A stretch of DNA of 64,000 nucleotides from a virus (Duplodnaviria; Caudoviricetes). Below the pieces are notes generated by a model. That model was not told the origin of the DNA, did no database searches, and saw nothing but the letters and a program-made list of their open reading frames with translations. Made by a program: the position numbers and the translations under genes. The DNA lies in IMG/VR virus record IMGVR_UViG_3300021400_000062, positions 32,136 through 96,135 of that record; one strand, given 5' to 3'. Shown piece by piece: positions 3,838 through 34,645 of the stretch (positions are counted from its first letter, which is position 1; each line of letters opens with the position of its first letter).

Positions 3838-4939
3838 TGCTTGGATTTTGTTGATTTACATATTGTTGCTTCATATTTCTTCTTACATAAGCAACTATAT
3901 CACTCAGGTCGTCGGTACTATTGTTGACCGAATCTTTTGGTCTGTAGGCAGCGCCGAGAATATCTCTCAATACAAGATTAACAAGCTGACTTTGAAGTGC
4001 TTCCTCAATAGGAAATTCTCTATCCCAAGGGTCGCATATACCATCACCTTCTGGACAAGTTTTTATCTTAGTTTGACCATCTTTTGTATACTTATAAGTA
4101 CAACCGGATTGCTCATAAGCTTTATCTGGATTTTCAAATATGGAAGTAATAAAAGCTGTTGTGTAGCTTGTTATATCACTGTTTGATTTTAGGTATAACT
4201 TGTTGTCTATACCAATTGTACCAAATACTTGATTCCTTGAATACTTGCTTAATCCAGCATATGGAAACCTCTCTTTGCCGACCATTTGAACATTTCCAAA
4301 AGTTCTCATTGTTGCATCATACATGTCTGGATTGCATTCAGATGTTTCTTGTGATGCAATTTGATATATAGACAAATCAAAATACTTTGGAAGCTTCGAA
4401 TATATCATACTGATTATATCCTGAACATCCTCTTTGCATTTTGTTGAATAGATATCTTCTATTGTTTTTGGCAATGTATCTATATCAGATATTTGTAATG
4501 CAGTATCACCGACAAGTTTATTCAGATACTCACAGAATTCATTATCTTGTTCTTCTGTTTGTCCAATACTATTATATGCATCAACAGATATTGTGAACTC
4601 GCCAGCACATCTAACAAGAGTTGCTTTTGTATCACTGAATGTAAGAACTTCAGATAGTTTATTTGATGACTTGAGCATATAAGAACTATCTGGATTACAT
4701 TTACTATTGCAGCAAGGATTTCCAGCAGAACCACTATTTGTTGGCTCAACCTTTGCACATATTGTTTGATAGTTACTTGATGGTATCTCCTGTGCTTTAT
4801 TTAGATACTTCTGCTTAAGAAGGTATGCCCTATATATATTAAGAAGGAATGCTATGTGTCTGTAAGTTAAGGTATCATCATCACTGACCTGTTTCGCAAG
4901 GTCTGCAACCATAACTATAAGCTCTCTATATGTGCTCAT
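3821..4939 (-). CDS. Tail ring protein 2-like
   Basis: MSTYRELI..YRAYLLKQKY N-terminus, IFENP and EFPIEEAL..PKDSVNN C-terminus. Confidence 0.7.
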   Translation of the reverse strand: MSTYRELIVMVADLAKQVSDDDTLTYRHIAFLLNIYRAYLLKQKYLNKAQEIPSSNYQTICAKVEPTNSGSAGNPCCNSKCNPDSSYMLKSSNKLSEVLTFSDTKATLVRCAGEFTISVDAYNSIGQTEEQDNEFCEYLNKLVGDTALQISDIDTLPKTIEDIYSTKCKEDVQDIISMIYSKLPKYFDLSIYQIASQETSECNPDMYDATMRTFGNVQMVGKERFPYAGLSKYSRNQVFGTIGIDNKLYLKSNSDITSYTTAFITSIFENPDKAYEQSGCTYKYTKDGQTKIKTCPEGDGICDPWDREFPIEEALQSQLVNLVLRDILGAAYRPKDSVNNSTDDLSDIVAYVRRNMKQQYVNQQNPSNGTAE

Positions 4940-5029: not shown

Positions 5030-5947
5030 TTAAGCAATCTTTGGAAGAGCATTAACAGCAGTTGCAATGGTTGTGAGTGTAGCCTTGCTTGCTTCTGGAG
5101 TTACAAAGATAGCATCACGCTCACTCTTCTGAACTTCATCATTGCCACCAACAAATGCATAATGAACAGCAAGAACAGCATATCCAGTAGCATCGCTTGC
5201 ATTTACATAGAGGTCTGGCTTGATGTTGTCTGGCCAACCAGCAAGAGCATTGGAGTTTCCTCTTTCACCCTTTGCAAAGAGCTCAAGGTCTGCAATCTTG
5301 TGGGTGTTAGGAATCGTTGTGTTGCCCTCTGCAAACTGCTTTGTTACAAGCCAATCATTATCCTCTGCGCCAGAAACGATTATTGGTGTTGTACCAACCT
5401 CAATTGTTGCAGTTGTTTCGGGGAAAGAACCAAGCTCCCAAGTAGGAGTAGCCTCAACAAGCTTGAAGCCAGCAGAGAAATCGGTGGATGCATCCTCAAG
5501 TGTAGCCTTGCTTGTTACCTTGCTGCCATCAACATAGATATCAAACAGTGGCTCTACCTCAACACCTCTCTGGAGCCAAGCATTGATAGCAAGGGCCCTA
5601 TAAAGGTCTGTATCGGTTGTACTCTTTGCTTTTGCAGCAATAATCTTTGTGGTAACATCCTCTTGACCAAAGCCACGGAATGTGAGACCAATAATATACT
5701 CCTGACCAGCAATCACCTTTCCATTTTTAACCGTGATTGTAAGCTCCTTGAGCTTCTTTGTGTCATCACCAGCAGCAACAACTGCCGCAGTACCAATTAC
5801 ATTCTTGATAACATCGGTGGTTTCAATCTTACCATCAGCATGAGTGATAGCATACTGAACGGCACCAGAAGGAGCAATGTTACTACCAAGAGTAGCACCT
5901 GTCTCAAGAACGTAGAGCTGAATTACTTGATTTGTAGAAAAGTTCAT
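5030..5947 (-). CDS. Auxiliary capsid (decoration) protein
   Basis: MNFSTNQVIQLYV N-terminus, IADLELFAKGERG motif; synteny downstream of MCP. Confidence 0.7.
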   Translation of the reverse strand: MNFSTNQVIQLYVLETGATLGSNIAPSGAVQYAITHADGKIETTDVIKNVIGTAAVVAAGDDTKKLKELTITVKNGKVIAGQEYIIGLTFRGFGQEDVTTKIIAAKAKSTTDTDLYRALAINAWLQRGVEVEPLFDIYVDGSKVTSKATLEDASTDFSAGFKLVEATPTWELGSFPETTATIEVGTTPIIVSGAEDNDWLVTKQFAEGNTTIPNTHKIADLELFAKGERGNSNALAGWPDNIKPDLYVNASDATGYAVLAVHYAFVGGNDEVQKSERDAIFVTPEASKATLTTIATAVNALPKIA

Positions 5948-7716: not shown

Positions 7717-9255
7717 TTAGGCTGCAAGAACGGCAGGAATCATAGAGAATACTTTGGTTACATCACGAACCACAGCACCAAATGTTCCAAGCACATGCAC
7801 AGAAGCCTTATCATCAGTGTAGCTCATGTTAGGATTGCCCCACTGACCGGTGAATGGATTGCGAGGACCCCACATGTAAGAACGAGCATCAACAGGCTGA
7901 CCTTCAATACCACAACGGTAAACATTAGGCTCATTGTTGTTACCCATATCATACACATCGAAGCGAGCAGCACTTGCAAGTGTGCCATCTTCCATCAGCA
8001 TCTTGTTGTTAACAGGGTCATCCTTCTGGGTATCAAGAACAACATCAAGAACAATGCCCATAGGCCCAGAGTAACGAGTGAACTGATAACCAGCAGAAAG
8101 TGCTGTCTCGTGCATAGGAGAAGATGTCTTCTTAACCACGCCAAGACCATCACCATTGAACTGGAACTCGGTCCAACCACTCATAGCATTGCGAACAGCA
8201 TTGCTGAACAGTCTTGCACCAGCCTCACCTGTATGGAGAGCAAAGTGTCTTCCCTGACCAAGCTCAATCTTTGCAGAGCTGATACGGAGAAGTGCATCCT
8301 CAAGAACCTTCAGGGAGAAGTCATTGTAGTAAACAACATTACCTCTCTCAAGCTGTGCAAGAATACCATCACCCTGCTTGATAACTTCACCGGAAACACC
8401 AAAGTTCATGTACTCACCATTGGACTTGCGGTTGGCAACAGAATAATAGTAAACATTATTCTTATACTCGCTCCAAGTCTGTGAAAATACATAATCCCAG
8501 TAGTGCATCCATACGAAGCCACCATTTTCTGGTGTAACCTTTACCTGCTTACCAGAGGCATCCATCCTTGCAATGGTAGCACCAATGGCAACCTTCTTGT
8601 TATAAACATCACCAGAAGCCTCATCGTGCAAACGAATCATAGTAAACTCGTTGCGAGCCTTCATAGGTGCAGAGTGTCTTACACCACCAACCTCCTTGGA
8701 GAGCCCCCTCTCAACTGGTGCATAAGCATAGCTGAATCTCTCACCGGGCTGGAGCCTATCCCAAGGCAGACCATCGTTGGAACCGTTAATACTCTCACAT
8801 TCATAGAGATATTTGGAACCATAAGCCTTTGGGTCATCCTTAATTCTTAATGGATAAATCTGATTGAGATTACCCATAATAACCTCGCCCTTGAAGAAGT
8901 AGGCCTCATCAAACAGAAGGAAGAGCACCTTTCCATTGGCACCAGCATTGCCTCCGTTGCTGGAAACTGCTGTTGTGCCATCCTCATAGAAAGCCTTTAC
9001 AAGAGGAATGTTCCTACGAGCAGAACCATAAACATCCCAAGTAATCTCGCTATCATCAGCAAACATCTTGGTAGGGAACTTGGAAAGCTCGGAATCAATG
9101 GACTGACCAAAATTCCTTGCCATTACCTGAGTGAAGAACTCAGAAACTACATTTTGGTTCTGGCCACCAAGCATACTGATGTGGTTTGCTTTGGTGATAA
9201 TAGAACTCCAACCTGTAAAGCCTCTGGTCTGAAATTTTGAAAATCTAACTGCCAT
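7717..9255 (-). CDS. Major capsid protein
   Basis: 512 aa; KFQ..FTGW..TK.NH start, GLPWDRLQPGERFS, IKQGDGI..Q, HTGEAG, GPRNPFTG motifs of crAss MCPs. Confidence 0.9.
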   Translation of the reverse strand: MAVRFSKFQTRGFTGWSSIITKANHISMLGGQNQNVVSEFFTQVMARNFGQSIDSELSKFPTKMFADDSEITWDVYGSARRNIPLVKAFYEDGTTAVSSNGGNAGANGKVLFLLFDEAYFFKGEVIMGNLNQIYPLRIKDDPKAYGSKYLYECESINGSNDGLPWDRLQPGERFSYAYAPVERGLSKEVGGVRHSAPMKARNEFTMIRLHDEASGDVYNKKVAIGATIARMDASGKQVKVTPENGGFVWMHYWDYVFSQTWSEYKNNVYYYSVANRKSNGEYMNFGVSGEVIKQGDGILAQLERGNVVYYNDFSLKVLEDALLRISSAKIELGQGRHFALHTGEAGARLFSNAVRNAMSGWTEFQFNGDGLGVVKKTSSPMHETALSAGYQFTRYSGPMGIVLDVVLDTQKDDPVNNKMLMEDGTLASAARFDVYDMGNNNEPNVYRCGIEGQPVDARSYMWGPRNPFTGQWGNPNMSYTDDKASVHVLGTFGAVVRDVTKVFSMIPAVLAA

Positions 9256-9285: not shown

Positions 9286-10464
9286 TTAAAGTATTATCTG
9301 CCAAGTCTGTTCTCCTGAACCATAATTACCACCTTTCCCACCAACAAGATTAAGTGTTCCATCAGTGTTCCTTGCAGTACTGTTCAAGGTTCTCTCAAGA
9401 GCAGATATCTCCTTTTTTCTAACCTCTTTACTAACAGATTCCTTTACTTTGTCAAGCGATTTGAATCCATCAGTAATAACATAGAAGTATGCCAAATACT
9501 TTCTGAAATCTGCCGGATTTTCATCAGCATATTTTTGCAGAGCACTTATTGGTCTGCCTTGCTTATCCTTCCCGACAGGTCTGTTGATAGCATCAAAAAT
9601 CTTTTGTCTGGTTGCCTTGTCAACCTTAATCTCTCCAAATGATTTCTCATCTTCAAGAATAGATTTCTTCAGCTTTTCAGCATCCTTCTTTCTGTCCTCA
9701 ACAGCTTTCTCATACTCAGCTTTTCTCGCATTGAACTCTTCGTCATACTTGGCTTTATAAAACTTTTTGTTTGACTCAAGAGCATCTTTTGCTTCTTCAA
9801 TATCAGTGCTGTTTTCAAAGATTTTTTGAACCTTTTCCTTTGCTCTGTCTTCCGAGAAACCCCTATTAATCAAGTCTGTATAAATCAGATTCTTTCTAAG
9901 GTTTTCCCCTTCTTCAGTTTCAGCATTAATATCTTCTTCCTTAATACTGTCGAGATTTTTTAGACTGTTTTCAAAGACCTGAATATCCGATGGTTCCATA
10001 CCATAAGTAAGAGCATCGTTTATTCTCTTTTCTGTTTCTCCCAATCTGTTTGTTACAGTCTCTTCCAACTTTTCCTTGATGAAATCCTCAAAGTCGTTAG
10101 CATTGTCAATCTTTGAAAGTCTTTCATCATCTGCATCTGAAAAAAGGGGAACACCATCTACCTTAAATGCCGAGGCAATGGAAGAGTAGGTATTGGGAGA
10201 AGTACCTTCAGCTTGGCTTCCGGTGCTCCCTGTTTCTTTTTCAGACTTATCGCCACCTACGCTCTCCAGTTCAAGATTTGCAGCATCAAGAACTTCAGTA
10301 GCCTCGTTTTCAATGAACTCTTGTTTTTCTTCTTTCTTTTCTTCCTCTTTGTGCTCCGGCTCCTTGACTTCTTCTTTTGTTTTTTCTGGCTCTACAACCT
10401 TGTTGTCAAGCTCCAAATCGCTGGCATCGAGGACATTTTCCATTGATAAATTAAATTCTTCCAT
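9286..10464 (-). CDS. Putative capsid scaffolding protein (gp77-like)
   Basis: Acidic helical 392 aa directly upstream of MCP; YVITDGFK motif. Confidence 0.7.
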   Translation of the reverse strand: MEEFNLSMENVLDASDLELDNKVVEPEKTKEEVKEPEHKEEEKKEEKQEFIENEATEVLDAANLELESVGGDKSEKETGSTGSQAEGTSPNTYSSIASAFKVDGVPLFSDADDERLSKIDNANDFEDFIKEKLEETVTNRLGETEKRINDALTYGMEPSDIQVFENSLKNLDSIKEEDINAETEEGENLRKNLIYTDLINRGFSEDRAKEKVQKIFENSTDIEEAKDALESNKKFYKAKYDEEFNARKAEYEKAVEDRKKDAEKLKKSILEDEKSFGEIKVDKATRQKIFDAINRPVGKDKQGRPISALQKYADENPADFRKYLAYFYVITDGFKSLDKVKESVSKEVRKKEISALERTLNSTARNTDGTLNLVGGKGGNYGSGEQTWQIIL

Positions 10465-10577: not shown

Positions 10578-11018
10578 CTACTCGTTTTCAACAAGCTTGC
10601 CTCTCAATCTTAAAGCATCTCTATAACAGTGGTCACATAAGAAATACTTTGCTACTGGATATGTTTGTTTACCTATTTCACCTGCCAAGTATTGATATTC
10701 TTCTCCAATGAAATCAATATCATTAAACAGTGCTATATGTATTGCAAGGTGCCCCTTTTCATGGTCTATTGTTGATTGGAATTCTTGCGGAGAATCTGTC
10801 TTACCTATGACAAGTACAGATGTTCTGTCTTTTGGAGATGAGAATGTAAGACCCGAGTTAATTCCAGCATCATACAATCTATCTACAGTTTCTTCAGGAT
10901 TTGTACAACCTATTGCTTCAAGGTCTTGCACTATCATATCATAGTATATGTCATCCACAAAATAATATACCCTCACATACCAATTCCAATTCTTAAGCTT
11001 AAAATCCTGTATTATCAT
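10578..11018 (-). CDS. HExxH zincin-like protein (cassette gene 6)
   Basis: TIDHEKGH with downstream EEYQYL; likely start 11018 overlapping the previous stop (ATGA). Confidence 0.65.
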   Translation of the reverse strand: MIIQDFKLKNWNWYVRVYYFVDDIYYDMIVQDLEAIGCTNPEETVDRLYDAGINSGLTFSSPKDRTSVLVIGKTDSPQEFQSTIDHEKGHLAIHIALFNDIDFIGEEYQYLAGEIGKQTYPVAKYFLCDHCYRDALRLRGKLVENE

Positions 11019-11419
11019 ACCATATCCTCCCAATCAATAGGAGTGCCGCTACCTATACAGTCTGCATAGAATCTTGTAAATACCATACCATCATAAGCAT
11101 CCGGGTCTTTTATTACATCTTTAACATACATTACAAGATGTTGTTCATCCATTATAGATGAGCCAAGAAAATCAGCTGAACACATATTGGCAACATATAG
11201 AGCATCATAGGAGAATGGTATGTTCACACCAAATCTCTGCATAATACTTTCAAGTTGCTCCTTTGTATATTTCCTTGGTTCAATCTCTCTGCCATTGGCA
11301 TCTTTCTTGAACATCTTACTTACAGCCCATTCACACATTTTCTTGGAGAAGTGCCACCCATAATAACCTATGTATTCTTCCATTCCGGAAGGAAATTTTT
11401 CTTTATAATCAAGTCTCAT
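11015..11419 (-). CDS. Conserved helical protein, GWHFSKKMCEWAVSKM family (cassette gene 5)
   Basis: 134 aa; YVANM..AD and DPDAYDG..FTRFYAD motifs. Confidence 0.7.
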   Translation of the reverse strand: MRLDYKEKFPSGMEEYIGYYGWHFSKKMCEWAVSKMFKKDANGREIEPRKYTKEQLESIMQRFGVNIPFSYDALYVANMCSADFLGSSIMDEQHLVMYVKDVIKDPDAYDGMVFTRFYADCIGSGTPIDWEDMV

Positions 11420-11430
11420 ACCTATATATA

Positions 11431-11457
11431 AATAAAGGGGAGTGTTACCTCCCCTTG
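11431..11457 (-). terminator. Hairpin/terminator inside cassette
   Basis: AAGGGGAG/CTCCCCTT stem plus U-rich tract. Confidence 0.6.
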
Positions 11458-11465
11458 GTTAAACA

Positions 11466-11675
11466 TTACTCCTCACGGTAACTTCCACCCATGCGGGAGC
11501 TTCTTTCACCATAATAGCTTTTAGCTTCTTTCATTGCATCCCTGTAGCCATCTTCATAACCACATTCATAAGCTTCATCTATATGGTCTTCTTTATATCC
11601 TCTCATGCCAGACTTATATCCACGCCTGCCAAATCTTGAGGTTTCGTCTTGTTCTCTTATTTCCCAAAGTCTCAT
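11466..11675 (-). CDS. Small R/G/Y/E-rich protein (cassette gene 4)
   Basis: Likely start MRLWEIRE; EAYECGYEDGYRDAM motif. Confidence 0.7.
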   Translation of the reverse strand: MRLWEIREQDETSRFGRRGYKSGMRGYKEDHIDEAYECGYEDGYRDAMKEAKSYYGERSSRMGGSYREE

Positions 11676-11676
11676 A

Positions 11677-12201
11677 TTACATTCCTGTTTTTGATAATCT
11701 TTCAAGCAGTAAGGCATTGGTCTTCATTAGTTCAGAAACATTCTTTGACATCTCGTCCATCTTTCCCTTTAGAGTATTTATTTCCTCTTTTTGGGTTTGC
11801 TTTTCAGCATATTCTGGATTAAGCTCAACCAATATCTTATCATATTGTTCAACCAAACCTTCGTGATATTCTCTGCTATTGATGATGTCTATACTCTTTT
11901 GTTTTGAACTTAGTACCTCAGAATTCATGGCTTCTCTACTATCAGCAACCACTATACTCTCTCCATTACTGAATGTATCAGCAATGTCTTGCTGTGAAGG
12001 AAGCCCGTTATAATTAGCTGTTATATCACCAATCTTAACAGATATATCTGTAACTAACTCTTGTGGTTGACCAAAAGTTGTCGGTATAGTGTATTTCGGT
12101 TTGGTTATAGGCTGAGAAATAACTTGCCCAATCTCCAAATATGGTTTGTTTGTTTTGTGCAGAACATATATTTGACCATTCTGCCTTACTGATTGAAACA
12201 T
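11677..12201 (-). CDS. Beta-rich N-domain plus C-terminal coiled coil (cassette gene 3)
   Basis: MFQSVRQNGQIYVLHK.., LNPEYAEKQ.. coiled-coil tail. Confidence 0.7.
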   Translation of the reverse strand: MFQSVRQNGQIYVLHKTNKPYLEIGQVISQPITKPKYTIPTTFGQPQELVTDISVKIGDITANYNGLPSQQDIADTFSNGESIVVADSREAMNSEVLSSKQKSIDIINSREYHEGLVEQYDKILVELNPEYAEKQTQKEEINTLKGKMDEMSKNVSELMKTNALLLERLSKTGM

Positions 12202-12220
12202 ATTATCTTGTGTTTATAAT

Positions 12221-12550
12221 TTAACCTATAAGCTTTAAGATGTTCAAAGCTCTATCGTAATATACAAGGTATACATCTGGTCCATCAAAGTCTGCAACAG
12301 TCAGGTTTGCACCACCGGATACTGTTACATTCTGTGTATTTCCAGCCATTGAGAATCTTATTGGAAGGGTTGTTGTTGTACCTTCAGGAATAGCTTCTGA
12401 AAGATAGACAAGCAACAAACCGCTAAAAGGGTTTCTATCCCAATCTGGATTGAACTGGAAGTCTACAGCAGTATCACTTACTGTTACTCTTGTGGACTTT
12501 ATTCTTGGAATACCGTTGATATTGGCATATTGATAAGGGAATCTTGCCAT
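12221..12550 (-). CDS. Small beta-sandwich-like protein (cassette gene 2)
   Basis: 109 aa; AIPEGTTTTLPIRF, VYLVYYDR motifs. Confidence 0.7.
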   Translation of the reverse strand: MARFPYQYANINGIPRIKSTRVTVSDTAVDFQFNPDWDRNPFSGLLLVYLSEAIPEGTTTTLPIRFSMAGNTQNVTVSGGANLTVADFDGPDVYLVYYDRALNILKLIG

Positions 12551-12569
12551 AGCATAATCCTCCTATCAA

Positions 12570-13457
12570 TTATCCCCAATAGCTCTGACCATTCCAGCCA
12601 TACCCATAGCCATTAAATCCACCGTAGAATGGTGTGTTATTTACAGCTGTAAGGTTTGGCCAAACTACAGGAACAGTATTAGGTTGTCTGTTTTCAATCT
12701 CATTAACCTTTGCTTGAATAGGTGCAAGAATGGCTGCAATCTGAGCTGTCTGGTTTGCATTGTCTATCTGACCACGGAGAGTTGAGATAACCTCATTCTT
12801 GGTGTTGATTTCATTCTGCATATCACGCTCTTTAGCATCACAGAACTCCTTAACCATAGTAGTCTTAAGGTCTGCAATAGCATCAACAGTACGCTGGCCA
12901 CTCCCACTGATTGCAGTACCAAGAGTGTTGGTCTGATTGAGTGTAGCAATCTGGTTTTCATAACCTTGAGATGTAACAAGAAGTTTATTCTCGCAGCAGC
13001 ACTGACACAGCTGGGAAGCAAGACTTGCGTTACCACTCTGGATAGCATTAACAACCTGAAGTGAAGACATTCCAAGCTGACCGCCAAGAGTAGCAATGCT
13101 TGTACTTACAGTACTAAGTGCAGACTTGATAGCATCAAGACTGTAACCAGACATTGTAGAAAGCTGCCTTACATCAGCATCTGTACCATCAATTGCACGC
13201 AGTACAGTTTCTGCATTATTGTTGGCTGTAGCCTGTGCACCAAGAGCTGCTGCTGCACCAGAATTACCACCACCAAAATTACTAAAACCTCCCCAACCAT
13301 TACCAAAGAGGAGACCAAGGATAAAACCAATAGCACCACCAGCAAGACCATTTCCACCAAAGAATCCATTGTTGCCATTGTTCATAGCAAGCCAAGCTGG
13401 AACAGAACCATAGCCATCACCATTGCCAAATACATAAGTTTTTGTATCTTCTGCCAT
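12570..13457 (-). CDS. Gly-rich membrane / coiled-coil protein with CQCCC motif (cassette gene 1)
   Basis: Hydrophobic GAIGFILGLLFG segment in Gly/Asn-rich N-terminus, heptad region, LASQLCQCCCEN, aromatic/Gly tail. Confidence 0.75.
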   Translation of the reverse strand: MAEDTKTYVFGNGDGYGSVPAWLAMNNGNNGFFGGNGLAGGAIGFILGLLFGNGWGGFSNFGGGNSGAAAALGAQATANNNAETVLRAIDGTDADVRQLSTMSGYSLDAIKSALSTVSTSIATLGGQLGMSSLQVVNAIQSGNASLASQLCQCCCENKLLVTSQGYENQIATLNQTNTLGTAISGSGQRTVDAIADLKTTMVKEFCDAKERDMQNEINTKNEVISTLRGQIDNANQTAQIAAILAPIQAKVNEIENRQPNTVPVVWPNLTAVNNTPFYGGFNGYGYGWNGQSYWG

Positions 13458-13511
13458 AATAAATTTAACTTTAAATTGTTTGTTTAATTTGTTTTTGTAA
13501 GCTTACGGCAG

Positions 13512-13544
13512 CAAATATAATGTGTGTTTTTCCGGAAAGACAAC
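13512..13544 (-). promoter_or_regulatory. Promoter for the six-gene cassette
   Basis: TATATTTG (13512-13519), 21-nt spacer, GTTG. Confidence 0.65.
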
Positions 13545-13550
13545 AATACT

Positions 13551-13584
13551 AAAACCCCTCACAGATTACTCTGCAAGGGGTTTT
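13551..13584. terminator. Possibly bidirectional terminator upstream of the cassette
   Basis: AAAACCCCT..CAGA-TTAC-TCTG..AGGGGTTTT; GTAA loop on minus strand. Confidence 0.7.
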
Positions 13585-13609: not shown

Positions 13610-13768
13610 TTAGAATGTATCAGCAGCTTTGTTTGCTATATAATTTATCATAAAATCTTTTATTGGAGAACCGTTTTCTTTCTGTTGTATATACGACACA
13701 ATCTGCTTTAAGAGAACATTGTTTTCTCTTAAAAGTAACAACATTTCTCTTTCTTCAGCATTTGTCAT
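13610..13768 (-). CDS. Small hypothetical protein (52 aa, below ORF-track cutoff)
   Basis: MTNAEEREMLLLLRENNVLLKQIVSYIQQKENGSPIKDFMINYIANKAADTF; begins 3 nt after the upstream gene's stop. Confidence 0.7.
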   Translation of the reverse strand: MTNAEEREMLLLLRENNVLLKQIVSYIQQKENGSPIKDFMINYIANKAADTF

Positions 13769-13771
13769 ATA

Positions 13772-13960
13772 TTATGATTCACCATCATCAGAATTGCTTG
13801 GTTCTTGATTGTCTTGAGTATTTTCTGGCTCTTCCTTTTTATTTGTTGATACCCACGCACCATTTAATGGAAACAACAGCTCTCCAGTAGATGGTTTCAG
13901 CCAGCCAACATTCATTACGGTTGGCTCATATTCCTGAATTAAAATAGAATTAATTTTCAT
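13772..13960 (-). CDS. Small protein, possibly head-fibre-like
   Basis: 62 aa; EPT..NVGWLKP motif and acidic tail; function call is weak. Confidence 0.45.
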   Translation of the reverse strand: MKINSILIQEYEPTVMNVGWLKPSTGELLFPLNGAWVSTNKKEEPENTQDNQEPSNSDDGES

Positions 13961-14249
13961 TTTTATTTAGTTTTATATATTTATCCAAATCCTGTTTATA
14001 CCACCTCAACTCTTTAAATCCAGCAACCTTCTTACCTTTTGGCAGTTTACCTTCAGCTACAAGATTATCAAACGTTGCTCTACTTATATTAAGGTATGTA
14101 TATGCTTGATATTTGCTTATACCATTTTCTCTTGCAAACTCATTCAATGCTCTTGCAACACTTATTGCATCATCCTCTGATATATTTGTATTACCAGCAT
14201 CTATATCATCTACAATTCTAATGAGCTGTTGTTTTATCAGGCCTATCAT
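13950..14249 (-). CDS. AlpA/excisionase-like HTH DNA-binding protein
   Basis: SKYQAYTYLNISRATFDNLVAEGKLPKG..LRWYKQDL. Confidence 0.75.
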   Translation of the reverse strand: MIGLIKQQLIRIVDDIDAGNTNISEDDAISVARALNEFARENGISKYQAYTYLNISRATFDNLVAEGKLPKGKKVAGFKELRWYKQDLDKYIKLNKNEN

Positions 14250-14628
14250 TTTTTGTCTCCTTTTGATGCAAATATAGTATTAAAAACAAGAATATAGCAA
14301 TCACTATACTATTTATTATTGCAAACATTACATCGCTTATTGGTAAATTAAAGTGAAAATCTATAGCACTTATTATATTTACAACAAGAATATAGTGTAA
14401 GAACATTCTATGATATTCACAAAACCTAAAAGCATATGAACATAAATACATAAAAGCCAAAGGCAATAATGATACTCCACCGATATATGATAGTGCTGAT
14501 ATATCAATACCAATCAGACATAACACTGTATTTATTGTATATACCAACGCTATTAGCATTGGTATAATTTTAAGCGAGATTATTGTTAATTTATATAATC
14601 TCTTATTTATGTCTGATTTTTCCGCCAC
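14218..14628 (-). CDS. Multi-pass membrane protein
   Basis: About 4 hydrophobic segments; FRFCEYHRMFLHY motif; GTG start. Confidence 0.65.
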   Translation of the reverse strand: MAEKSDINKRLYKLTIISLKIIPMLIALVYTINTVLCLIGIDISALSYIGGVSLLPLAFMYLCSYAFRFCEYHRMFLHYILVVNIISAIDFHFNLPISDVMFAIINSIVIAIFLFLILYLHQKETKNDRPDKTTAH

Positions 14629-14725
14629 AAGCTTTTAGGTTGCCACCATTACCAAGTCTTCTTTTTCCTGTTTTAAGACCAGCCCTTGGTGTTCTTGGGT
14701 CTGATTTCCTTCTTTTTGTAGCCAT
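14603..14725 (-). CDS. Small very basic protein (40 aa) with xxGG motifs
   Basis: MATKRRKSDPRTPRAGLKTGKRRLGNGGNLKACGGKIRHK; fills the gap between neighbours. Confidence 0.6.
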   Translation of the reverse strand: MATKRRKSDPRTPRAGLKTGKRRLGNGGNLKACGGKIRHK

Positions 14726-14730
14726 TTCCA

Positions 14731-15180
14731 TTATTTCTTATTTTGTTTATCAACCATCATAATCTTCTTTAATGATTCAAGACTTTCCGGTGTGAGTATA
14801 TTTTCTTCACCACCATCAGCTCGCTTGATAGCAGAAGCAAGCACAAAGTTTGTGAGGGTCATTATCTGTTTTCTACTTTCAGCAACCTCATTCTTCAACT
14901 CAACAATCTCTTTCTTAAGCTCTTTCTTTTCCTCTATAAGCTGAAGTTTCTCATCAGATAGATTTCTGTTTTGAGCGATTACCAAATCATTCTGTTCTTT
15001 CATGTTGGCAATCATATCTTCGTACATCTTTTTATAGCTGTCCAAAGACTTGTCAAAGTTATCTATCTTTGCACCCTGTACTTCTGTCTTATATTTGTTT
15101 CTTGCAAAGATATAAGATGCAAAGCTACCGGCTGTTGCAGAAGCAAAATAGCCTATAATATTCCAAAGTTCCGCGCTCAT
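14731..15180 (-). CDS. Holin-like single-TM coiled-coil protein
   Basis: N-terminal TM then long heptad repeat; next to the spanin-like gene. Confidence 0.55.
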   Translation of the reverse strand: MSAELWNIIGYFASATAGSFASYIFARNKYKTEVQGAKIDNFDKSLDSYKKMYEDMIANMKEQNDLVIAQNRNLSDEKLQLIEEKKELKKEIVELKNEVAESRKQIMTLTNFVLASAIKRADGGEENILTPESLESLKKIMMVDKQNKK

Positions 15181-15785
15181 TTTATTACTTCAATAAATTT
15201 TTGTTTTTCATTAATTATAAATGGATTCTTCTCTACAACTTCAACTTCCACTATTTTACTCTTCTTCTTAAACCAGTCTCTAACTTTACAGTCAGATGGG
15301 TTAAGCAATACCTTTTTGTATGAAGCAACTATATATTTTTCACTTGGAACTTTGATATTAAGACCTACCATTTGTGGATATTCAAGATGTAAACCAATTG
15401 TATACCACTTATTATTTACCGTTGTATCAACCTTTGTATTTTTAACAAAGATTGTATCTGTAAGTCTTATTGTATCTTTTATGTTTGCTATTGATTGAAG
15501 ATAAGCCAAAGAAGCGAGCTGCTTATCTTTAACTTTTAAATCTCTCTTGAGCGAAACCATCTCTTTAACAAGAGAATCGTTGCTATGGTTAAGCTCTGCT
15601 ATTGTATATTTGAACTGTATGGAATTACTCTTTAGTGAATCATTCTCTGCTATATAGGCAAGCTCGTTTTTCTTTGAAATCTCAAGGGATTTTCTCAATG
15701 ATTTATTAATAGACATGAAGCAATATACCACTGAAAACAATACAGCGATTGCAACAAGTCCTATAATATAATCCCTTAATTTCAT
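15177..15785 (-). CDS. Rz-like spanin candidate
   Basis: N-terminal TM anchor, coiled coil, DTI..DTI repeats, WFKKK and NPFI C-terminus. Confidence 0.6.
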   Translation of the reverse strand: MKLRDYIIGLVAIAVLFSVVYCFMSINKSLRKSLEISKKNELAYIAENDSLKSNSIQFKYTIAELNHSNDSLVKEMVSLKRDLKVKDKQLASLAYLQSIANIKDTIRLTDTIFVKNTKVDTTVNNKWYTIGLHLEYPQMVGLNIKVPSEKYIVASYKKVLLNPSDCKVRDWFKKKSKIVEVEVVEKNPFIINEKQKFIEVIK

Positions 15786-15789
15786 GTTG

Positions 15790-15821
15790 CAATTATAGAT
15801 AAACTTTAAATAATCTACAAG
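15790..15821 (-). promoter_or_regulatory. Promoter abutting the spanin-like start codon
   Basis: TATAATTG variant -7 box 4 nt before ATG, 20-nt spacer, CTTG. Confidence 0.5.
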
Positions 15822-15882
15822 CGTTTTAATAAATAATTTAGCAGTACGTTTGTGCTGCTAAATAAATTTGTTTATCAAATGT

Positions 15883-18342
15883 TTATTGTGCTTTACTTTT
15901 ATTGCTTATCTGTTTTCTTTTCAACTCTGCATCTGTTTTTGCTTTATCTTTATCAAAGTTTAACCTATCTCTATTAAGTTGGTTGGTAGCATCAAATTGC
16001 TTTCTCTTTTCATCAAGATTAGCTCTTTCTCCTTCAGTCATTTGACCATTATTGTTAGCATCATCTTGAATCCTTGCCTGTGCTTGAATCTCTGCAACAA
16101 GTATCTTTGTTTCATTGTTTTCAGTATTCATAGCAGCTTCATGCTCCATTTGCTGTTGCTTTGTCTGCTGTTCCATTTGAGCTATTTGTTGCTGGCTCTG
16201 GAGTTGCTGTTGCTGTGCTTCAGCTTGTCTTTGATATGTTGCCTGCTCATCCTCCTCAATAACCCTCTGCTTTTCTGCTCTTGATGTAGAATTATACAGT
16301 CTAATCAGACCACTCATTGTGAGCTTATCATTCTGTAAGCAAGCTTGGATTATTGTAGGAAGATTCTTTGTAAACTCTTGTGTATCATAAGAGTTGTCCA
16401 CAACAAGCCCATAAGAATTCATTGAGAATGTATCTCCATCCACAGTAACAATCTGCTTTGCAAGGTCTGAAGAAATAACATATTGGAATTTCTTTACAGT
16501 ACCCTTGAGAGCAGCTCTACACATGTCAATAAATGCCTCAATAAATCTCTTCTTGAGATTATCGTGAATCATAAATATCCACTCAGTAATATGGCTTGAT
16601 TGAAGCACGCTTCTTTCAACACCACCAACAGTTTCCCTGTTTTGAATCTGTCCCTCTCTTTGGTCTGTAATACCAGCGGCCTTGCCCATTATCTGCTCTA
16701 TCATCACAAGGATATTGATAAGTGCAGAAATGGATTGACTCATATCAAGGTCTATTGTTCTTGATGAAGCGTTGTTCATAAGACCAGCAAGCTTTCCTTT
16801 TGCAGCACCAGCATTACCCTCTCTAAAACTATCTCTTACAGAAATACCGTGAGCGGTAAGAATCTTCACATAGTCTGTAATATCCCATTTCTCTGGAACA
16901 AGAGAAAGGTCAAGGTCTATAACCTTTCCCCTATTCCTTGAAAGAAGGTCTGTGAGTCTGTGCATTGTAGCATCGTAAAGATAGCTGTATGGTTTCATCA
17001 AATCAACCATAGACACGGGCTCATCTCCACCTATATTATATATGGAACCTATTATACCAAAGTGACACTTTGATGGATGGTCAAGGTCGTTGAATTGTAT
17101 AGGGCATGGTTTTATATCTACAAATAACTTCTCCCCAATCTTAACTCCCTGCCAAGCCTGATTAATCCAATATGGTTGCTCTTCCTCACCCATTTCCTTG
17201 TTTGCCTTATAATCTTCTGTGTGAAGACTATACTCAACTTCTCCTGTAATGGGATTGTAAGACTTAATTCTTTTAATCTTCCTTAAAGACTTCCAGTATA
17301 CCTGACTAACCTTTATGTTGCCATATACATCATAGGGTAGATACTCCCCAATAGTGTCTGTTGGAATATACAAATCATCGGCGGTGAGGTCTTGGTGATT
17401 ATCCTCCCAAAGACTTATACCATCAGAATATTTTGAACCATCTGGTCTCTCACCAACCCTATATCCAACAATTGCTTCCGGTGAGCCAAGACCATCACTT
17501 CTCATGAATGAATCATAATCAGAACCAGACTTATAGTTTTCTATGTACTCAACCTCCTTGTCTGTAAGTATATCTCCATAGGTTTCTATAATCTTTCCTT
17601 TACTCCAGTAATTGTTGATAACTATCATATCAGCATCTTCTATCTTCGATGAATTGCTGTTGCGATAAATATCAACAAGCTGTGGGTCAAGCTTCCTTGC
17701 TGCTGGTTCACCATTCTGAAGATAAACCTGATATATTTCTTCACCACATGTTTCAGCATCAATCAGACCACTGTTAAACATGAACTTAAAATCATATTCT
17801 CTCCAGTAATGATTAGACAACTGGTTGGCCACAAGTTCATTGCTATCCTGCCAAGTTGTCGTCATATATTTAAGCTCGGATTGAACCTTTGATTCAAACT
17901 CTTCCTGACTTTGTGAGCTTTCAGCAATAGATTGTTCAATCCTGCTGACCATTTCAGCCTGCTTTGCTTTTTCTATTTCAGATACAGCATTTGGATTGGT
18001 TACTATGACACTATAATCAAATGTTCTTCCAGCTTCTTCACCACGAAGAACATTAAGTTTGCTATTTATTATAGGGTAATGCTGAATCTTGTCTGGTACA
18101 ATATCATCACCAAGATTTGAAGCATTAAGCACAATAGCAAGGTCTGACATATGAATCTTGTTGTTCACAAGGTCATAGTTTATCTTCTTGTGAAGCATAG
18201 AATTCCTTACCTTTGTATCAGTGAAGTAGTTCTTGCTTGCACCCCACTCTACGCATTGTGCTCCCCACATCTTGGTTTTCTTTCTCCATCCAACCTTTTG
18301 GCTCGGAAAACCGCCCTGTATATTGACACTATCAAGTAGCAT
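15883..18342 (-). CDS. Portal protein
   Basis: 819 aa; IQHYPIINSKLNVLRGEE, GITDQREGQIQNRETVGGVERS motifs; Q-rich barrel. Confidence 0.9.
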   Translation of the reverse strand: MLLDSVNIQGGFPSQKVGWRKKTKMWGAQCVEWGASKNYFTDTKVRNSMLHKKINYDLVNNKIHMSDLAIVLNASNLGDDIVPDKIQHYPIINSKLNVLRGEEAGRTFDYSVIVTNPNAVSEIEKAKQAEMVSRIEQSIAESSQSQEEFESKVQSELKYMTTTWQDSNELVANQLSNHYWREYDFKFMFNSGLIDAETCGEEIYQVYLQNGEPAARKLDPQLVDIYRNSNSSKIEDADMIVINNYWSKGKIIETYGDILTDKEVEYIENYKSGSDYDSFMRSDGLGSPEAIVGYRVGERPDGSKYSDGISLWEDNHQDLTADDLYIPTDTIGEYLPYDVYGNIKVSQVYWKSLRKIKRIKSYNPITGEVEYSLHTEDYKANKEMGEEEQPYWINQAWQGVKIGEKLFVDIKPCPIQFNDLDHPSKCHFGIIGSIYNIGGDEPVSMVDLMKPYSYLYDATMHRLTDLLSRNRGKVIDLDLSLVPEKWDITDYVKILTAHGISVRDSFREGNAGAAKGKLAGLMNNASSRTIDLDMSQSISALINILVMIEQIMGKAAGITDQREGQIQNRETVGGVERSVLQSSHITEWIFMIHDNLKKRFIEAFIDMCRAALKGTVKKFQYVISSDLAKQIVTVDGDTFSMNSYGLVVDNSYDTQEFTKNLPTIIQACLQNDKLTMSGLIRLYNSTSRAEKQRVIEEDEQATYQRQAEAQQQQLQSQQQIAQMEQQTKQQQMEHEAAMNTENNETKILVAEIQAQARIQDDANNNGQMTEGERANLDEKRKQFDATNQLNRDRLNFDKDKAKTDAELKRKQISNKSKAQ

Positions 18343-25990: not shown

Positions 25991-26458
25991 CTACTTTATT
26001 TCTATTGTTATCTTTTCACCTCTCTTGTGTGCATCGTAAAGCTTTTTATAAAGCTGCTTGAATACTTCTTTTGATTGTAAAAGCTTACCTTTTTGTAGGT
26101 TTCTACCCACAAGTACACACCCATATGAATCGAGTGCCGTGTTTCCGGGGTGTATAAGTATGCCATCAAACCCCGGAACAAACTTAAGCCTTGGCATTCT
26201 TCCACCATTACAGTTTTGCTTATACCAAGATATTGATGCATACTTTGGTGATACTGTCTCCATATCTATCTCATATACACCAGATGGTATTGCTGTTTCT
26301 CCAGTAACTTTTATTGTAGCTATTCTTGCAAGACTATCAGTTTGTTTCAAACCTCTATCTTTATCTTCAAGAGATTCATAGAATCTAACACCATTTACAA
26401 ACAATCTTGATATGGTATATGTTTGCTTTTTCCAAGCTCTATCTATCAGTAGTTTCAT
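25991..26458 (-). CDS. DUF5675 protein (putative peptidoglycan peptidase / endolysin)
   Basis: TAIPSGVY, VPGFDGILIHPGNT..DSYGCVLVG His/Cys motif. Confidence 0.8.
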   Translation of the reverse strand: MKLLIDRAWKKQTYTISRLFVNGVRFYESLEDKDRGLKQTDSLARIATIKVTGETAIPSGVYEIDMETVSPKYASISWYKQNCNGGRMPRLKFVPGFDGILIHPGNTALDSYGCVLVGRNLQKGKLLQSKEVFKQLYKKLYDAHKRGEKITIEIK

Positions 26459-31684: not shown

Positions 31685-34645
31685 TTAATTAGCGTGTATA
31701 TAATCTTCTGTATCGTATGTTGCTGATGCTCTAATCAAAGACCAACTCATATCAAGTGCAAGATAATCATTGGCTATTTGTGAGCCATTCCACGCCCCTG
31801 TAGTAATCGTACCCAGAGTATTAATGTTCTGTGAGCCACCCCAAGTAGAAAGCGCGATGTTCTCAACATCCCCAAGACCTACCATAGTCTTTGTAAGAGA
31901 CAGTTCCCCAGCAGCATTCTTTGGGTTGTAGTTCAGTACACTTATGCCGTCAGAGTTCTTTATTGTAAGAGCATAGATAGTATAGTCTGTAAGGTATGCG
32001 CTTGTATCAAGCTCCCAAGTGTTGTTTGCATTCCTCCTTAACAAACCATTCCCAGTAAGTGCTTCAATAAGCCTCAAGTCATCCGTCCCACTTATCTCAC
32101 TCAATGAGTATCCCGGCTTACTTCCAGCCAACGCCCAGTCACTTATACCAAGAGTGCTCTTAATGTTATTTTTCGTAAAGTCTTGCTCATCAAAAGCGAT
32201 ATACCCGAGAGCATTTTCTATCATCTCCGAATCAATCGCCTTCAAGTATCCCTCTGATGCATGGTTTCCCCATCCATAAGCAGTATGCCCTTCACCTATA
32301 TATGTCTTGTATGTAGAACCTATATCTATTGTTCTGTTTGCTTCAAGTGTTCCACCACCAGTAAGATAGCCGGTACCAGTAATAGATATTGCCTTTAACG
32401 CATTAACGGTAGCATCTACTTCACTCTTTGTGTATGCACTCTGTTTATCCATAGGGATATAACCAAGTGCGGTCTCTATCATCTCGGAGTCAATGCTAGT
32501 AAGGTATTCACTTGTATCCAAAGCCCAGGTATTCTCTGCGGTCTTTTTCAATAGCCCCTTTGTTCCCGCAAGAGCCTCTATTGCTTTGAGGTCATCTGCA
32601 CCTGTAACATTAGATAGTGCTATAGTCGTAGGAAGTGTACCATAACTCACAGTAAGCGTACTGCCATTCTTGCTGATGGCACTTACATAATTGCCTATAC
32701 CACTTGCGCTGATGGCATTAACATACCCACTCAGGTCTATGCTTGTGTCACCAATCTTTACCCAAGTAGTAGTGTAGACATATTCCTCGTACCTGTCGGA
32801 GCCACTACCAGTAGGACCGATAAGATAAAGCACATTGCTCTGCGGGTCAGAGACATCGCTTGTGCTCGCAGCAATCTCATAGTGGAACTGATTGATTGCA
32901 GCTATAAGGGCATTGACCTCAGCCTTTCTATAGGTATCACTTTTGAGGTAGTAGTTCGTGAGGTCATTTACCGCCTTTGTAATGAATCCCTGCTGACCCA
33001 CCCAGCTCTCGGTTGCATAGCCAGATAGGCTCTGGTGGGCTGTAAGCACATCGTGATAGTTACTGCCAAGAGTAATCCTTATCTTGTCTGATACACCGGC
33101 AGAACTAAACTTTGCATCAGTTATTCCATAGCCATCAAGTGTGTCTGGATGCGATGTCAAGTCACTAAAAGCAACAGATGTAAGGTAACTGCTCAGGTCG
33201 ATATTCACATCCTTGCTGCTTACTGGCAGAGCCGAGCCATTGACCTTCACAGACTCTATAACATTAATCTGTGCGCCAGATGCTATACCTTCAAGTTTTG
33301 ACTTCAGGGCACTCGTAAAGTTGTTATCAGTATGGACATAACTTGCATCAACAGCAAAGTTACTATCGTTGGTAAGGTCTGATGTCTTTGAAGGATAGGC
33401 AGGCAGAGATACAACACCATTGGTGTTTGGATTATAAGGAGTGCCGCCAACATCTACACGGGTTACAGTACCTTGAGTCTGCCCAGTAACACTGACTACT
33501 CCATCATCTATCGTAAGCCCTGCACCTATCTTTATCAGTCCGAGAGTAGATGCTGTTGCAGGCTGATTTGCAAGAGCATTGAGTGCACTTGCGGTAGCAA
33601 AGTAAGAATTCGAGTGACCACCAAGTTGTGCCGCGTTCCTCGCAACTCCATTAGAAAAGTATCCCTCAAGAAGTCCAAGCCTTGAAGTGATACCATCAAT
33701 AGCAGCGGATTTCATCAACAACTTGCTGACACCATTAACAGAAAGTGATACCTGATTCTCTGATTCAGCACCCCACAGTACAGTACCTGTTGTACCGGGG
33801 TCATCAATAGTTATCTCTTCTCCTTCTTCTGGGTCTACATAGCAGAGGTCGTCCCCATCAAGAAGGTTCCTTGCCCTATCTATAATAGTAGGAGTATTGC
33901 TGATGTTAGAGTATGGAATGGTAGGTATATGTGCCAAGTTAATCTTAACATCAGGCTTATCAGTATTATTGATGAGTGATTCCCATACCCTATCAAGGTC
34001 TACTCCACCACCACTTCCTGAATATGAGTTTATGCCCCCAAAAGAACCAAAAGAATTACCATAGAATCCATAATTATTTTTTACATGGATTGCATATTCC
34101 GGACTTGCTTCAGTACCAACATTTACCTTCTCGAACCATTCGTCAAGATTTGCAAGAGATTGAGAATTCCTTGCAACTGTAAATTCAAGGCTTACTACAT
34201 CATCAATGACTACTTCATCATTATCATCTACAACAATAACTTGTGCACGAAACCACCCCTTCTCTATTGTATCATCATCAAATTTTGTAAACTTGATTTG
34301 AATATATGGGTCAAGTCTTGTTGTTGCAGATTGGCCCCTGCCACTTGGTTTTCTACCAGAGATGAATGTTGTAGATAATGTGATATCATCTGCTGATGTT
34401 ATTGCAGTATTATCACTCTTGAACAGTTTTACAGTTGTGTGTGATGAGCTTGTTATATTCTCACCGCCCTTATATACTCTTAATATCCAATAATACTGTT
34501 GCCACCAATGTGTTATTGTCCCACTACGGTTTTCCGAGAGGATAATATCCTGCATATCAAGCACAGAAGGAGAAAGCTGCAATGAAAATGCATCGTCTCC
34601 TTTCTGTGCTACATTAAATGTTATCTGGCCTCTCGATTGTGTCAT
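31685..34645 (-). CDS. Long tail fibre shaft protein
   Basis: 986 aa; repeats DDLxxIEAL..W.LDTS.YLT and IDSEMIExALGYI; TLDGYGITDA. Confidence 0.7.
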   Translation of the reverse strand: MTQSRGQITFNVAQKGDDAFSLQLSPSVLDMQDIILSENRSGTITHWWQQYYWILRVYKGGENITSSSHTTVKLFKSDNTAITSADDITLSTTFISGRKPSGRGQSATTRLDPYIQIKFTKFDDDTIEKGWFRAQVIVVDDNDEVVIDDVVSLEFTVARNSQSLANLDEWFEKVNVGTEASPEYAIHVKNNYGFYGNSFGSFGGINSYSGSGGGVDLDRVWESLINNTDKPDVKINLAHIPTIPYSNISNTPTIIDRARNLLDGDDLCYVDPEEGEEITIDDPGTTGTVLWGAESENQVSLSVNGVSKLLMKSAAIDGITSRLGLLEGYFSNGVARNAAQLGGHSNSYFATASALNALANQPATASTLGLIKIGAGLTIDDGVVSVTGQTQGTVTRVDVGGTPYNPNTNGVVSLPAYPSKTSDLTNDSNFAVDASYVHTDNNFTSALKSKLEGIASGAQINVIESVKVNGSALPVSSKDVNIDLSSYLTSVAFSDLTSHPDTLDGYGITDAKFSSAGVSDKIRITLGSNYHDVLTAHQSLSGYATESWVGQQGFITKAVNDLTNYYLKSDTYRKAEVNALIAAINQFHYEIAASTSDVSDPQSNVLYLIGPTGSGSDRYEEYVYTTTWVKIGDTSIDLSGYVNAISASGIGNYVSAISKNGSTLTVSYGTLPTTIALSNVTGADDLKAIEALAGTKGLLKKTAENTWALDTSEYLTSIDSEMIETALGYIPMDKQSAYTKSEVDATVNALKAISITGTGYLTGGGTLEANRTIDIGSTYKTYIGEGHTAYGWGNHASEGYLKAIDSEMIENALGYIAFDEQDFTKNNIKSTLGISDWALAGSKPGYSLSEISGTDDLRLIEALTGNGLLRRNANNTWELDTSAYLTDYTIYALTIKNSDGISVLNYNPKNAAGELSLTKTMVGLGDVENIALSTWGGSQNINTLGTITTGAWNGSQIANDYLALDMSWSLIRASATYDTEDYIHAN

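Follow-up and report, generated by a model that had tools for sequence, protein, structure and literature searches.

The operon described here lies on the minus strand at positions 10578-13584 of the window, a stretch of 64,000 nucleotides (positions 32,136 to 96,135) of the IMG/VR record IMGVR_UViG_3300021400_000062. This record is a complete virus genome of 96,135 bp with terminal repeats and belongs to a crass-like rumen phage. The operon comprises a terminator hairpin, a Bacteroides-type promoter, and four genes, followed by another hairpin and a pair of overlapping genes. It is tentatively read as encoding a late-made accessory fiber that is expressed from its own promoter, carries an exchangeable tip, and brings along its own helper and protease genes, an assignment that is possible rather than probable. 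Such a fiber may be borne by the virion, where it could take the role of the head fibers of phage crAss001.

In the proposed arrangement, the 295-residue lead protein would form a helical rod with a length of ~19 nm and with low-complexity Gly/Asn/aromatic sequence at both ends. Attachment would take place through its short hydrophobic stretch at the N terminus, and its C-terminal Gly/Tyr tail would hold a small β protein as the exchangeable tip. An SH3-like/helical protein and a small Arg/Tyr-rich peptide would be further stoichiometric parts. The DUF7841 protein and a zincin, made in smaller amounts behind an attenuating hairpin, would serve as helper and processing enzyme. The destination would most likely be the virion surface, with the structure acting as an accessory fiber or adhesin like gp21 and gp29 of crAss001. 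We infer that the products assemble into one complex located on the virion and processed by the zincin.

The viromes of gut and rumen are dominated by crass-like and other Bacteroidales phages, and for most non-core genes of these phages, no role is known. The operon is among the more widespread functionally unassigned units and moves as a unit between phage families; PHROGs and Pfam both list its protein families as unknown. No description of it was found in the literature, where the matches were the crAss001 structure paper, reviews, and isolation reports. If it encodes a fiber, it bears on the binding of phages to cells, capsules, or mucus and may explain what replaces the crAss001 head fibers in the many crassviruses that do not have them, a question left by the structure paper. 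If its products act on the envelope, it would fill a gap in the understanding of lysis or entry in Bacteroidales. Its function is directly testable since a cultured carrier exists, the Bacteroides uniformis phage C3-41T2LP (C3_41T2LP), which grows on strain MB20-41 (PMC9727126).

Gene content and conservation of the operon

All genes of the operon are encoded on the minus strand. The lead gene (12570-13457; 295 amino acids) matches the PHROGs profile phrog_16490 (6e-32) and is followed by the genes of a β-type protein of 109 amino acids (12221-12550; phrog_31654, 3e-8) and of an SH3-like plus helical protein of 174 amino acids (11677-12201; phrog_28898, 1e-48). The fourth gene encodes a small peptide rich in Arg, Gly, Tyr, and Asp. 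Its open reading frame (ORF) spans 83 amino acids (11466-11717), and the most likely start is Met15 (base 11675), just past the stop of the 174-residue gene, which leaves ~69 amino acids (11466-11675). Beyond the second hairpin lies the gene of a helical DUF7841 protein of 134 amino acids (11015-11419; PF25223; phrog_38431, 5e-49). All four profiles are annotated 'unknown function'. The last gene encodes a minimal zincin. Its ORF can be read from a TTG (10578-11033; 151 amino acids), and the most likely start is the ATG at 11018, the Met of which is conserved in the zincin family (10578-11018; ~146 amino acids). This start overlaps the stop of the DUF7841 gene (ATGA). The six ORFs, both hairpins, and the promoter box were all found where the original prediction had placed them, and the CQCCC motif, the Gly/Asn-rich N terminus, and the aromatic/Gly tail of the lead protein, as well as the HExxH motif and the ATGA overlap, are likewise all present.

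Related loci were fetched from IMG/VR (59) and from GTDB genomes (16), and in 63 of these, the sequence continues for at least 3.2 kb beyond the lead gene. The gene order is collinear in 63/63 loci, down to 25-35% identity. Herein, the DUF7841 gene follows the lead gene in 62 loci, the zincin gene in 56, the SH3-like/helical gene in 53, and the β gene in 52; the small low-complexity peptide is under-detected by BLAST and visible on inspection. At 90% identity, the lead family forms >4000 clusters, a number that falls to 500 at 50%. A megablast search of the operon region against the phage collection gave no match.

The operon is found in at least five genomic settings and in several phage lineages. 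It is located before the scaffold and major capsid protein (MCP) genes, as in the window, or before the TerL block. In cr272_1, it comes after large tail genes and abuts the endolysin gene; in cr4_1 and cr53_1, it follows a holin and a LysB-like gene; in cr1_1, it sits between 'pholin' and endolysin; and in the cultured non-crAss phage C3_41T2LP, it is surrounded by RecT and resolvase genes. The crAss carriers span several crAss families, and further copies occur in phages of 150-178 kb and on contigs of Bacteroidales metagenome-assembled genomes (MAGs) of up to 539 kb. Within the Asinivirinae, the operon is present in cr116_1 and not in crAss001. This distribution and the changing settings characterize it as accessory and mobile. 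Collinear genes that bring along a conserved promoter and conserved hairpins strongly bear out the earlier description of a portable, autonomous unit, and the similar gene sets in other gut phages that it mentions were verified by this comparison of gene neighborhoods.

Some lineages depart from the common layout. In Suoliviridae, the layout is permuted with DUF7841 first, and an Arg/Tyr-rich tail is fused at the C terminus of DUF7841, which ties the peptide and DUF7841 together. In one lineage (L054, 2280-3350), a 356-residue gene is inserted between the small peptide and DUF7841; hence, the operon tolerates insertion at this site. An assignment of this insert to DUF1566 by a WYLPS..EL-like motif was dropped after Pfam gave no match. 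In cr116_1 (L064), a second small HExxH protein (5234-5581; VOG3488) is encoded directly upstream of the lead gene. In the TAG-recoded Suoliviridae cr53_1 (L083) and cr7_1 (L085), the lysis genes and the cassette are directly preceded by genes for an Mtd-like tail protein and a reverse transcriptase of the diversity-generating retroelement type, and in cr7_1, only one small gene separates this reverse transcriptase from the lead gene. Bacteroidales MAG contigs of 129-539 kb (L069, L072, L074, L076, L077, and L079) also carry the operon, surrounded by tail and lysis genes of the crass-like type; one of them, of 143 kb, is from Phocaeicola dorei. These contigs could be integrated crass-like prophages or chimeric assemblies. 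Matches on short contigs in Treponema, Kiritimatiellia, Synergistales, and Bacilli bins are probably binning artefacts.

The lead protein and its proposed exchangeable tip

In the AlphaFold2 model of the lead protein, computed from an alignment of 92 sequences, residues 1-78 are disordered except for a short helix over the hydrophobic stretch. These are followed by helices over residues 80-128, a single 125-residue helix over residues 132-257 (pLDDT >90), and a disordered tail. The N terminus is rich in Gly, Asn, and Phe, and the tail in Gly, Tyr, and Trp. G142 and C155 are invariant in the family alignment, and almost the same holds for C153, C154, N137, and three prolines in a PNTVPV..WPNL..TP motif.

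The tail co-varies with the gene that follows. Lead proteins with a tail ending in SYWG pair with β type A, and those ending in F pair with type B. Where the Gly/Tyr tail is missing, there is no β gene, and Cys-rich tails pair with Cys-rich second genes. Among the genes of the set, the β gene is the most freely exchanged. This pattern is suggestive of a single assembly, and the 109-residue protein is the likely partner of the lead tail.

No solved structure resembling the rod was found. Foldseek of the lead model against the PDB gave nothing below E = 1, and the lead, 109-residue, and 174-residue proteins and their family profiles gave chance-level matches only against PDB sequences, such as a designed repeat, FimA (E ~0.07), and a paramyxovirus F protein with a GCN4 tag (0.017). 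Matches to a flagellin (0.008) and a sulfur-globule protein (0.003) were rejected as compositional. The ESM Atlas returned unnamed viral clusters only, and PADLOC and NCBIfam gave nothing meaningful, with no match in the defense library. No longer or fused forms of the lead or DUF7841 proteins were found, the sole match of 310 amino acids having a junk-like C terminus. Relatives carry record labels such as 'outer capsid protein/viral fiber' or 'spike protein/glycoprotein', the former counting in favor of the accessory fiber.

The nearest competitor of the accessory fiber concerns the N terminus. Here, the operon would be an envelope-acting module, with the lead protein anchored in the inner membrane and acting late, with or beside the lysis proteins; this is somewhat doubtful and ranks closely after the fiber. 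Possible roles include a spanin-like or fusogen-like breach of the outer layers, a lysis-timing factor, and a block to superinfecting phages. In its favor, nearly all members contain the hydrophobic, Gly-rich segment, which comprises 10-16 residues flanked by FG/GNG repeats and is as hydrophobic as the segment of the neighboring gp28-like 'holin'. In addition, the long helical region with its invariant Cys recalls i-spanins. On a simple insertion scale, the best 19-residue window of the lead protein scores 3.1 kcal/mol (family median 3.6), compared with -1.9 and -3.8 for the true transmembrane (TM) segments of the neighbors and 9-23 for soluble proteins. By this score, the segment appears only marginally membrane-like, and a few members do not have it. 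The earlier characterization as membrane-acting thus stays putative, given the short stretch, its marginal score, and the members without it.

The heptads of the original prediction were not recovered: the family-averaged hydropathy of the helices peaks at a periodicity of 3.6-3.8, and over residues 132-257, the power at 3.5 does not exceed the background. Hendecad-type coils or helical bundles would still be compatible with such a rod. A new kind of portable device that fuses or pierces membranes would combine a non-heptad helical rod with a fusion-peptide-like N terminus, an aromatic/Gly tail gripping a second surface, and the zincin as maturase. It would act either during entry, from the virion, or during lysis, across the envelope, in the latter case as a spanin-like machine that works without a lipoprotein partner. 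This version is considered improbable.

A further explanation starts from the low-complexity ends. The rod with its aromatic/Gly 'sticker' ends and the Arg/Tyr-rich peptide would form a cytoplasmic scaffold or condensate, meaning a gel-like or membrane-tethered matrix that organizes late events. The ends of the lead protein are rich in FG, GNG, and GYG, residues 1-90 containing 22 Gly and 12 Asn; the composition of the peptide is conserved, and Suoliviridae have it as a fusion to DUF7841; all partners are without export signals; and the depth of RNA contigs is high relative to the MCP gene, which adds weakly to the case. However, this is an argument from composition. A conserved motif as specific as PNTVPV..WPNL..TP, together with a folded tip that is exchangeable, speaks for defined binding as opposed to diffuse cohesion, and the Cys-rich tails may point to a structural or extracytoplasmic role. 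A condensate is hence the least likely of the explanations and very improbable.

The partner proteins

The AlphaFold2 model of the 174-residue protein (pLDDT 86) shows an SH3-like barrel (residues 1-88) and three helices, the last of 44 residues, and thereby confirms the layout of β structure plus helix proposed earlier. The barrel resembles domain I of EF-P and eIF5A (VIA-align Z ~6), a likeness that is uninformative on function. Searches with this model gave a generic SH3-like barrel only in the PDB and uncharacterized phage relatives only in BFVD. The small peptide consists of an acidic helix and a part rich in Arg, Gly, Tyr, and Asp. The 134-residue protein matches the Pfam family DUF7841 (PF25223) with E = 1.9e-27 and 96.2 bits against a cut-off of 25.2, and its relatives in cr53_1 and cr1_1 reach 135-145 bits.

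The last gene likely encodes a minimal zincin of the HExxH...E type with E111 as the third ligand, as judged from residue conservation. H91, E92, H95, and E111 are invariant in 38 sequences, Y115 and G118 are likewise invariant, and the protein has a C-terminal Cys pair. None of its Pfam matches (M78, SprT-like, and DUF6782) reaches the curated cut-off; for the protein of the window, M78 comes first with 13.9 bits against 22, and sequence searches found no solved relative. A role of the peptidase as a maturase is plausible and agrees with the conserved internal hairpin, by which the last two genes would be expressed at a lower level.

The same enzyme has raised the idea that the products are loaded into the capsid and delivered with the DNA, the hydrophobic end of the lead protein aiding passage through the envelope and the zincin acting after entry on phage or host proteins. 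It resembles the metallopeptidase modules of 'polyvalent' proteins, and the homologue of the last gene in C3_41T2LP is annotated as a PolyVal metallopeptidase superfamily protein. The operon adjoins scaffold, MCP, and portal genes in many loci, the small Arg/Tyr-rich peptide could bind nucleic acid, and crAss001 packages cargo proteins, one of them with a predicted transmembrane helix (PMC10172136). Against this, no zincin member reaches a Pfam peptidase threshold, 0/38 match the PolyVal model at E up to 1 (3-4 of them weakly match M78, SprT-like, or DUF6782), and no fusion to larger proteins was found. Nothing points to capsid targeting, and the exchangeable tip and the co-variation of the tail are typical of exposed parts rather than internal ones. 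Ejected proteins are thus quite improbable.

A hydrophobic segment at the N terminus is absent from all five partner products, as assessed by hydrophobicity windows only (minimum scores 9-23). They therefore cannot join a periplasmic structure by ordinary export, and assembly would take place in the cytoplasm, as for virion parts. This agrees with the accessory fiber and leaves five cytoplasmic proteins unexplained in an envelope-acting module. Since the operon contains no lipoprotein or signal-peptide partner, it does not form a two-component spanin, and with the LysB-like gene being separate, a classical spanin pair is excluded on gene content. The separate LysB/gp27-like gene already provides a candidate i-spanin.

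Regulatory signals and probable late expression

A terminator-like hairpin (13551-13584, minus strand; 15 pairs and a T-run) closes the upstream unit, and an equivalent GC hairpin precedes the lead gene in many related loci. It is followed by the promoter region (13512-13547, minus strand), consisting of the spacer ATTGTTGTCTTTC (13535-13547), which lies between terminator and -7 box, and the -7 box TATATTTG (13512-13519). The latter fits the Bacteroides -7 box TAnnTTTG of the sigma-ABfr type. As this generic box is common in the window (101 matches versus 81 expected), the mere presence of TATATTTG proves little. Its position is conserved, with TAnnTTTG 51-77 nt before the lead ATG in 27/50 related loci versus 3.7% of background windows, usually preceded by the GC hairpin and a ATTGTTGTCTTTC-like spacer. 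A scan of the window for sigma-70-type promoters stayed at chance level (26 found versus 25 expected). The second, internal GC hairpin (11435-11456, minus strand; 8 pairs and a T-rich tail) probably acts as a partial terminator or attenuator. Ahead of the DUF7841 gene, a strict GC-rich hairpin was found in 34/47 loci, compared with 35/470 random windows (7%). The assignment of these signals as regulatory is thus supported by their conservation rather than by presence alone.

The spacer ATTGTTGTCTTTC occurs once in the window. Ahead of the lead gene, it recurs almost without change in loci with proteins of just 35-60% identity, and the loci sharing a similar spacer are mostly those with an upstream HTH_17 gene. 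It may be an operator for the HTH_17 protein, beyond a -33 element.

Contigs from four rumen RNA libraries of three studies span the region from the MCP gene through the operon. Their ends fall at 13476-13497, ~15-40 nt beyond the -7 box, with an adapter seen at 13476 in one of them, and the deeper contigs of two studies stop near the internal hairpin, at 11449 and 11468. These data are contigs rather than reads, and contig depth is a poor measure of expression; they are therefore weak hints at a start site, an attenuator, and active transcription. The region 13694-15900 is not covered by contigs in the four rumen RNA runs, which is not evidence in either direction. For the accessory fiber, the conserved hairpin and the drop in contig depth in two studies fit a split in stoichiometry between structural and catalytic products.

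The cassette genes of the TAG-recoded phages cr53_1 and cr7_1 carry in-frame TAGs, like the neighboring lysis and virion genes. Recoded stops mark late genes (10.1101/2021.08.26.457843; PMC9523058). This pattern suits lysis genes as well as virion genes and hence does not separate the envelope-acting module from the fiber. It counts against an early or carrier-state exclusion function, and superinfection exclusion by a moron-like unit, an option of the original prediction, is disfavored. Peptides of the lead-family motif were not found in metaproteomes enriched for virus-like particles of two TAG-recoded crass-like phages (Peters et al., PMC9523058), which would bear on the operon only if these phages carry it.

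Position among head and lysis genes

The operon is located in a late block beside head genes, either scaffold and MCP or TerL and portal, in 21/63 loci. In cr116_1 and cr1_1, it occupies the stretch from holin to endolysin, in which the proven head fiber gp29 of crAss001 is encoded. Full-length gp29 occurs in 34 records and the lead gene in 28, with zero overlap between the two sets. In cr116_1 (L064), a 65-residue ORF between holin and endolysin (3856-4053) matches the N-terminal anchor of gp29 only (44% over 34 amino acids, E = 0.007). The head fibers of crAss001 are a gp21 trimer and a gp29 dimer (Bayfield et al. 2023, PMC10172136), and the same paper notes that uncharacterized proteins may replace head fibers in other groups.

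For the envelope-acting module, this neighborhood can be read differently. Lysis-type genes (4-TM gene, endolysin homologue, and gp27/gp28-like genes) lie within a few kb in 25/63 loci, and the settings in cr1_1, cr272_1, cr53_1, and cr4_1 all include holin-type or endolysin genes. However, crAss001 lyses its host without the operon, and its head fiber gp29 is also encoded between holin and endolysin, so that the neighborhood does not discriminate between the two readings.

Several points weigh against the accessory fiber. The presence of any product in a virion is a prediction, and crAss001, the sole crassvirus with a solved virion, does not carry the operon. Lysis genes are about as frequent neighbors as head genes (25/63 versus 21/63 loci). 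The absence of overlap with gp29 may reflect shared ancestry and few independent events, and the co-variation of tail and tip could be plain linkage of adjacent DNA, although the pattern in which the β gene is absent is harder to explain by linkage alone. The hydrophobic stretch of the lead protein is unusual for a soluble fiber. The operon also occurs in phages of other virion types, and among recombination genes in C3_41T2LP, which is hard to reconcile with binding to a capsid-specific pocket. No similarity was detected to gp29 (no BLASTP match; hhalign probability of 0.6% for the 109-residue family against a five-member gp29 alignment) or, by sequence, profile, and Foldseek searches, to any solved fiber. 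Finally, the depth of RNA contigs over the operon, albeit a poor measure of expression, exceeds that over the MCP gene, a higher level than a minor virion part would lead one to expect.

Neighboring genes in the window

Downstream of the operon, the window encodes the scaffold-position protein (9286-10464), which matches crAss001 gp31, and the MCP, a 512-residue protein (7717-9255) that matches crAss001 gp32 with E = 3e-138 and 44% identity. On its other side, the portal gene (15883-18342) is followed by homologues of crAss001 gp27 (15177-15785) and gp28 (14731-15180), both on the minus strand. In crAss001, gp27 is annotated as a lysis regulatory protein and gp28 as a holin, and the gp27-type gene is annotated as LysB-like in cr53_1. 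Next come a 4-TM protein that is a likely holin (14218-14628, minus strand) and an HTH_17 protein (13950-14249, minus strand; E = 5e-5). Both often accompany the operon, being encoded directly upstream of the lead gene in ~20/63 loci, and the 4-TM gene adjoins the endolysin gene in L064, L072, and L077. A homologue of the crAss001 gp30 L,D-carboxypeptidase, linked via cr116_1, is the likely endolysin (25991-26458, minus strand); in this genome, it lies ~12 kb from the other lysis-like genes. The minus-strand genes at 14218-14628, 14731-15785, and 25991-26458 look like the lysis genes of the phage.

Anchors resembling that of gp21 were also noticed. Two genes upstream of the operon, a 62-residue ORF (13772-13960, minus strand) has an N terminus resembling the gp21 anchor (NVGWL..G.L.F..NG.W) followed by an acidic tail only. 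The resemblance was seen by eye, and BLASTP against gp21 gave only E = 0.14. In a 97% identical relative (L005, 3547-4932), a 461-residue protein with the same anchor type and a GDSL/SGNH esterase domain (Pfam E = 1e-20) is encoded directly after the portal; this gene is missing from the window. In cr1_1 (L084, 6260-6769), a 169-residue protein directly follows the cassette trio before the endolysin gene and begins, by eye, with a gp21-like anchor motif (KYFNGKDWVYV), to which a predicted coiled coil is joined. It is probably a head-fiber gene that abuts the operon.

Comparison with known systems

Like phage morons, the operon is preceded by a terminator, begins with a promoter, and can be present in one phage and absent from a close relative, as in cr116_1 and crAss001. 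In contrast to them, it consists of six co-evolving genes instead of one, shows late-type TAG recoding in relatives, and lies inside late operons. The last gene corresponds to minimal zincins such as Peptidase_M78 (ImmA/IrrE), SprT-like, DUF6782, and MPTase-PolyVal proteins in its HExxH motif, downstream Glu, and size of ~130-150 amino acids, and differs from them by falling below all curated Pfam cut-offs.

Two-component spanins (Rz/Rz1 of lambda and LysB/LysC of P2) resemble the lead protein in having an N-proximal hydrophobic segment, long helices with conserved cysteines, and a location near holin and endolysin genes. The lead protein differs by a Gly-rich extension of 30-55 residues before the hydrophobic stretch, and the operon by its five leaderless partners and the lack of an outer-membrane lipoprotein.

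Coiled-coil virus fibers of the reovirus sigma-1 type and T4 fibritin show the same combination of helical shaft, attachment end, and separate distal module as the structure proposed here. In sigma-1, a hydrophobic virion anchor is located at the N terminus. The operon has no detectable homology to these fibers, its rod has a periodicity of 3.6-3.8, and its tip would be a separate gene product.

The closest counterparts in crass-like phages are gp21 and gp29 of crAss001. Like the operon, they are non-core late genes in the variable stretch that reaches from the portal and lysis genes to the scaffold and MCP genes, and they follow the same logic of a small anchor and a distal domain. The operon is distinguished from them by six genes instead of one, with its own promoter, helper, and peptidase, by its occurrence outside Crassvirales, and by a long helical rod with a hydrophobic low-complexity N terminus that has no sequence or profile similarity to either protein.

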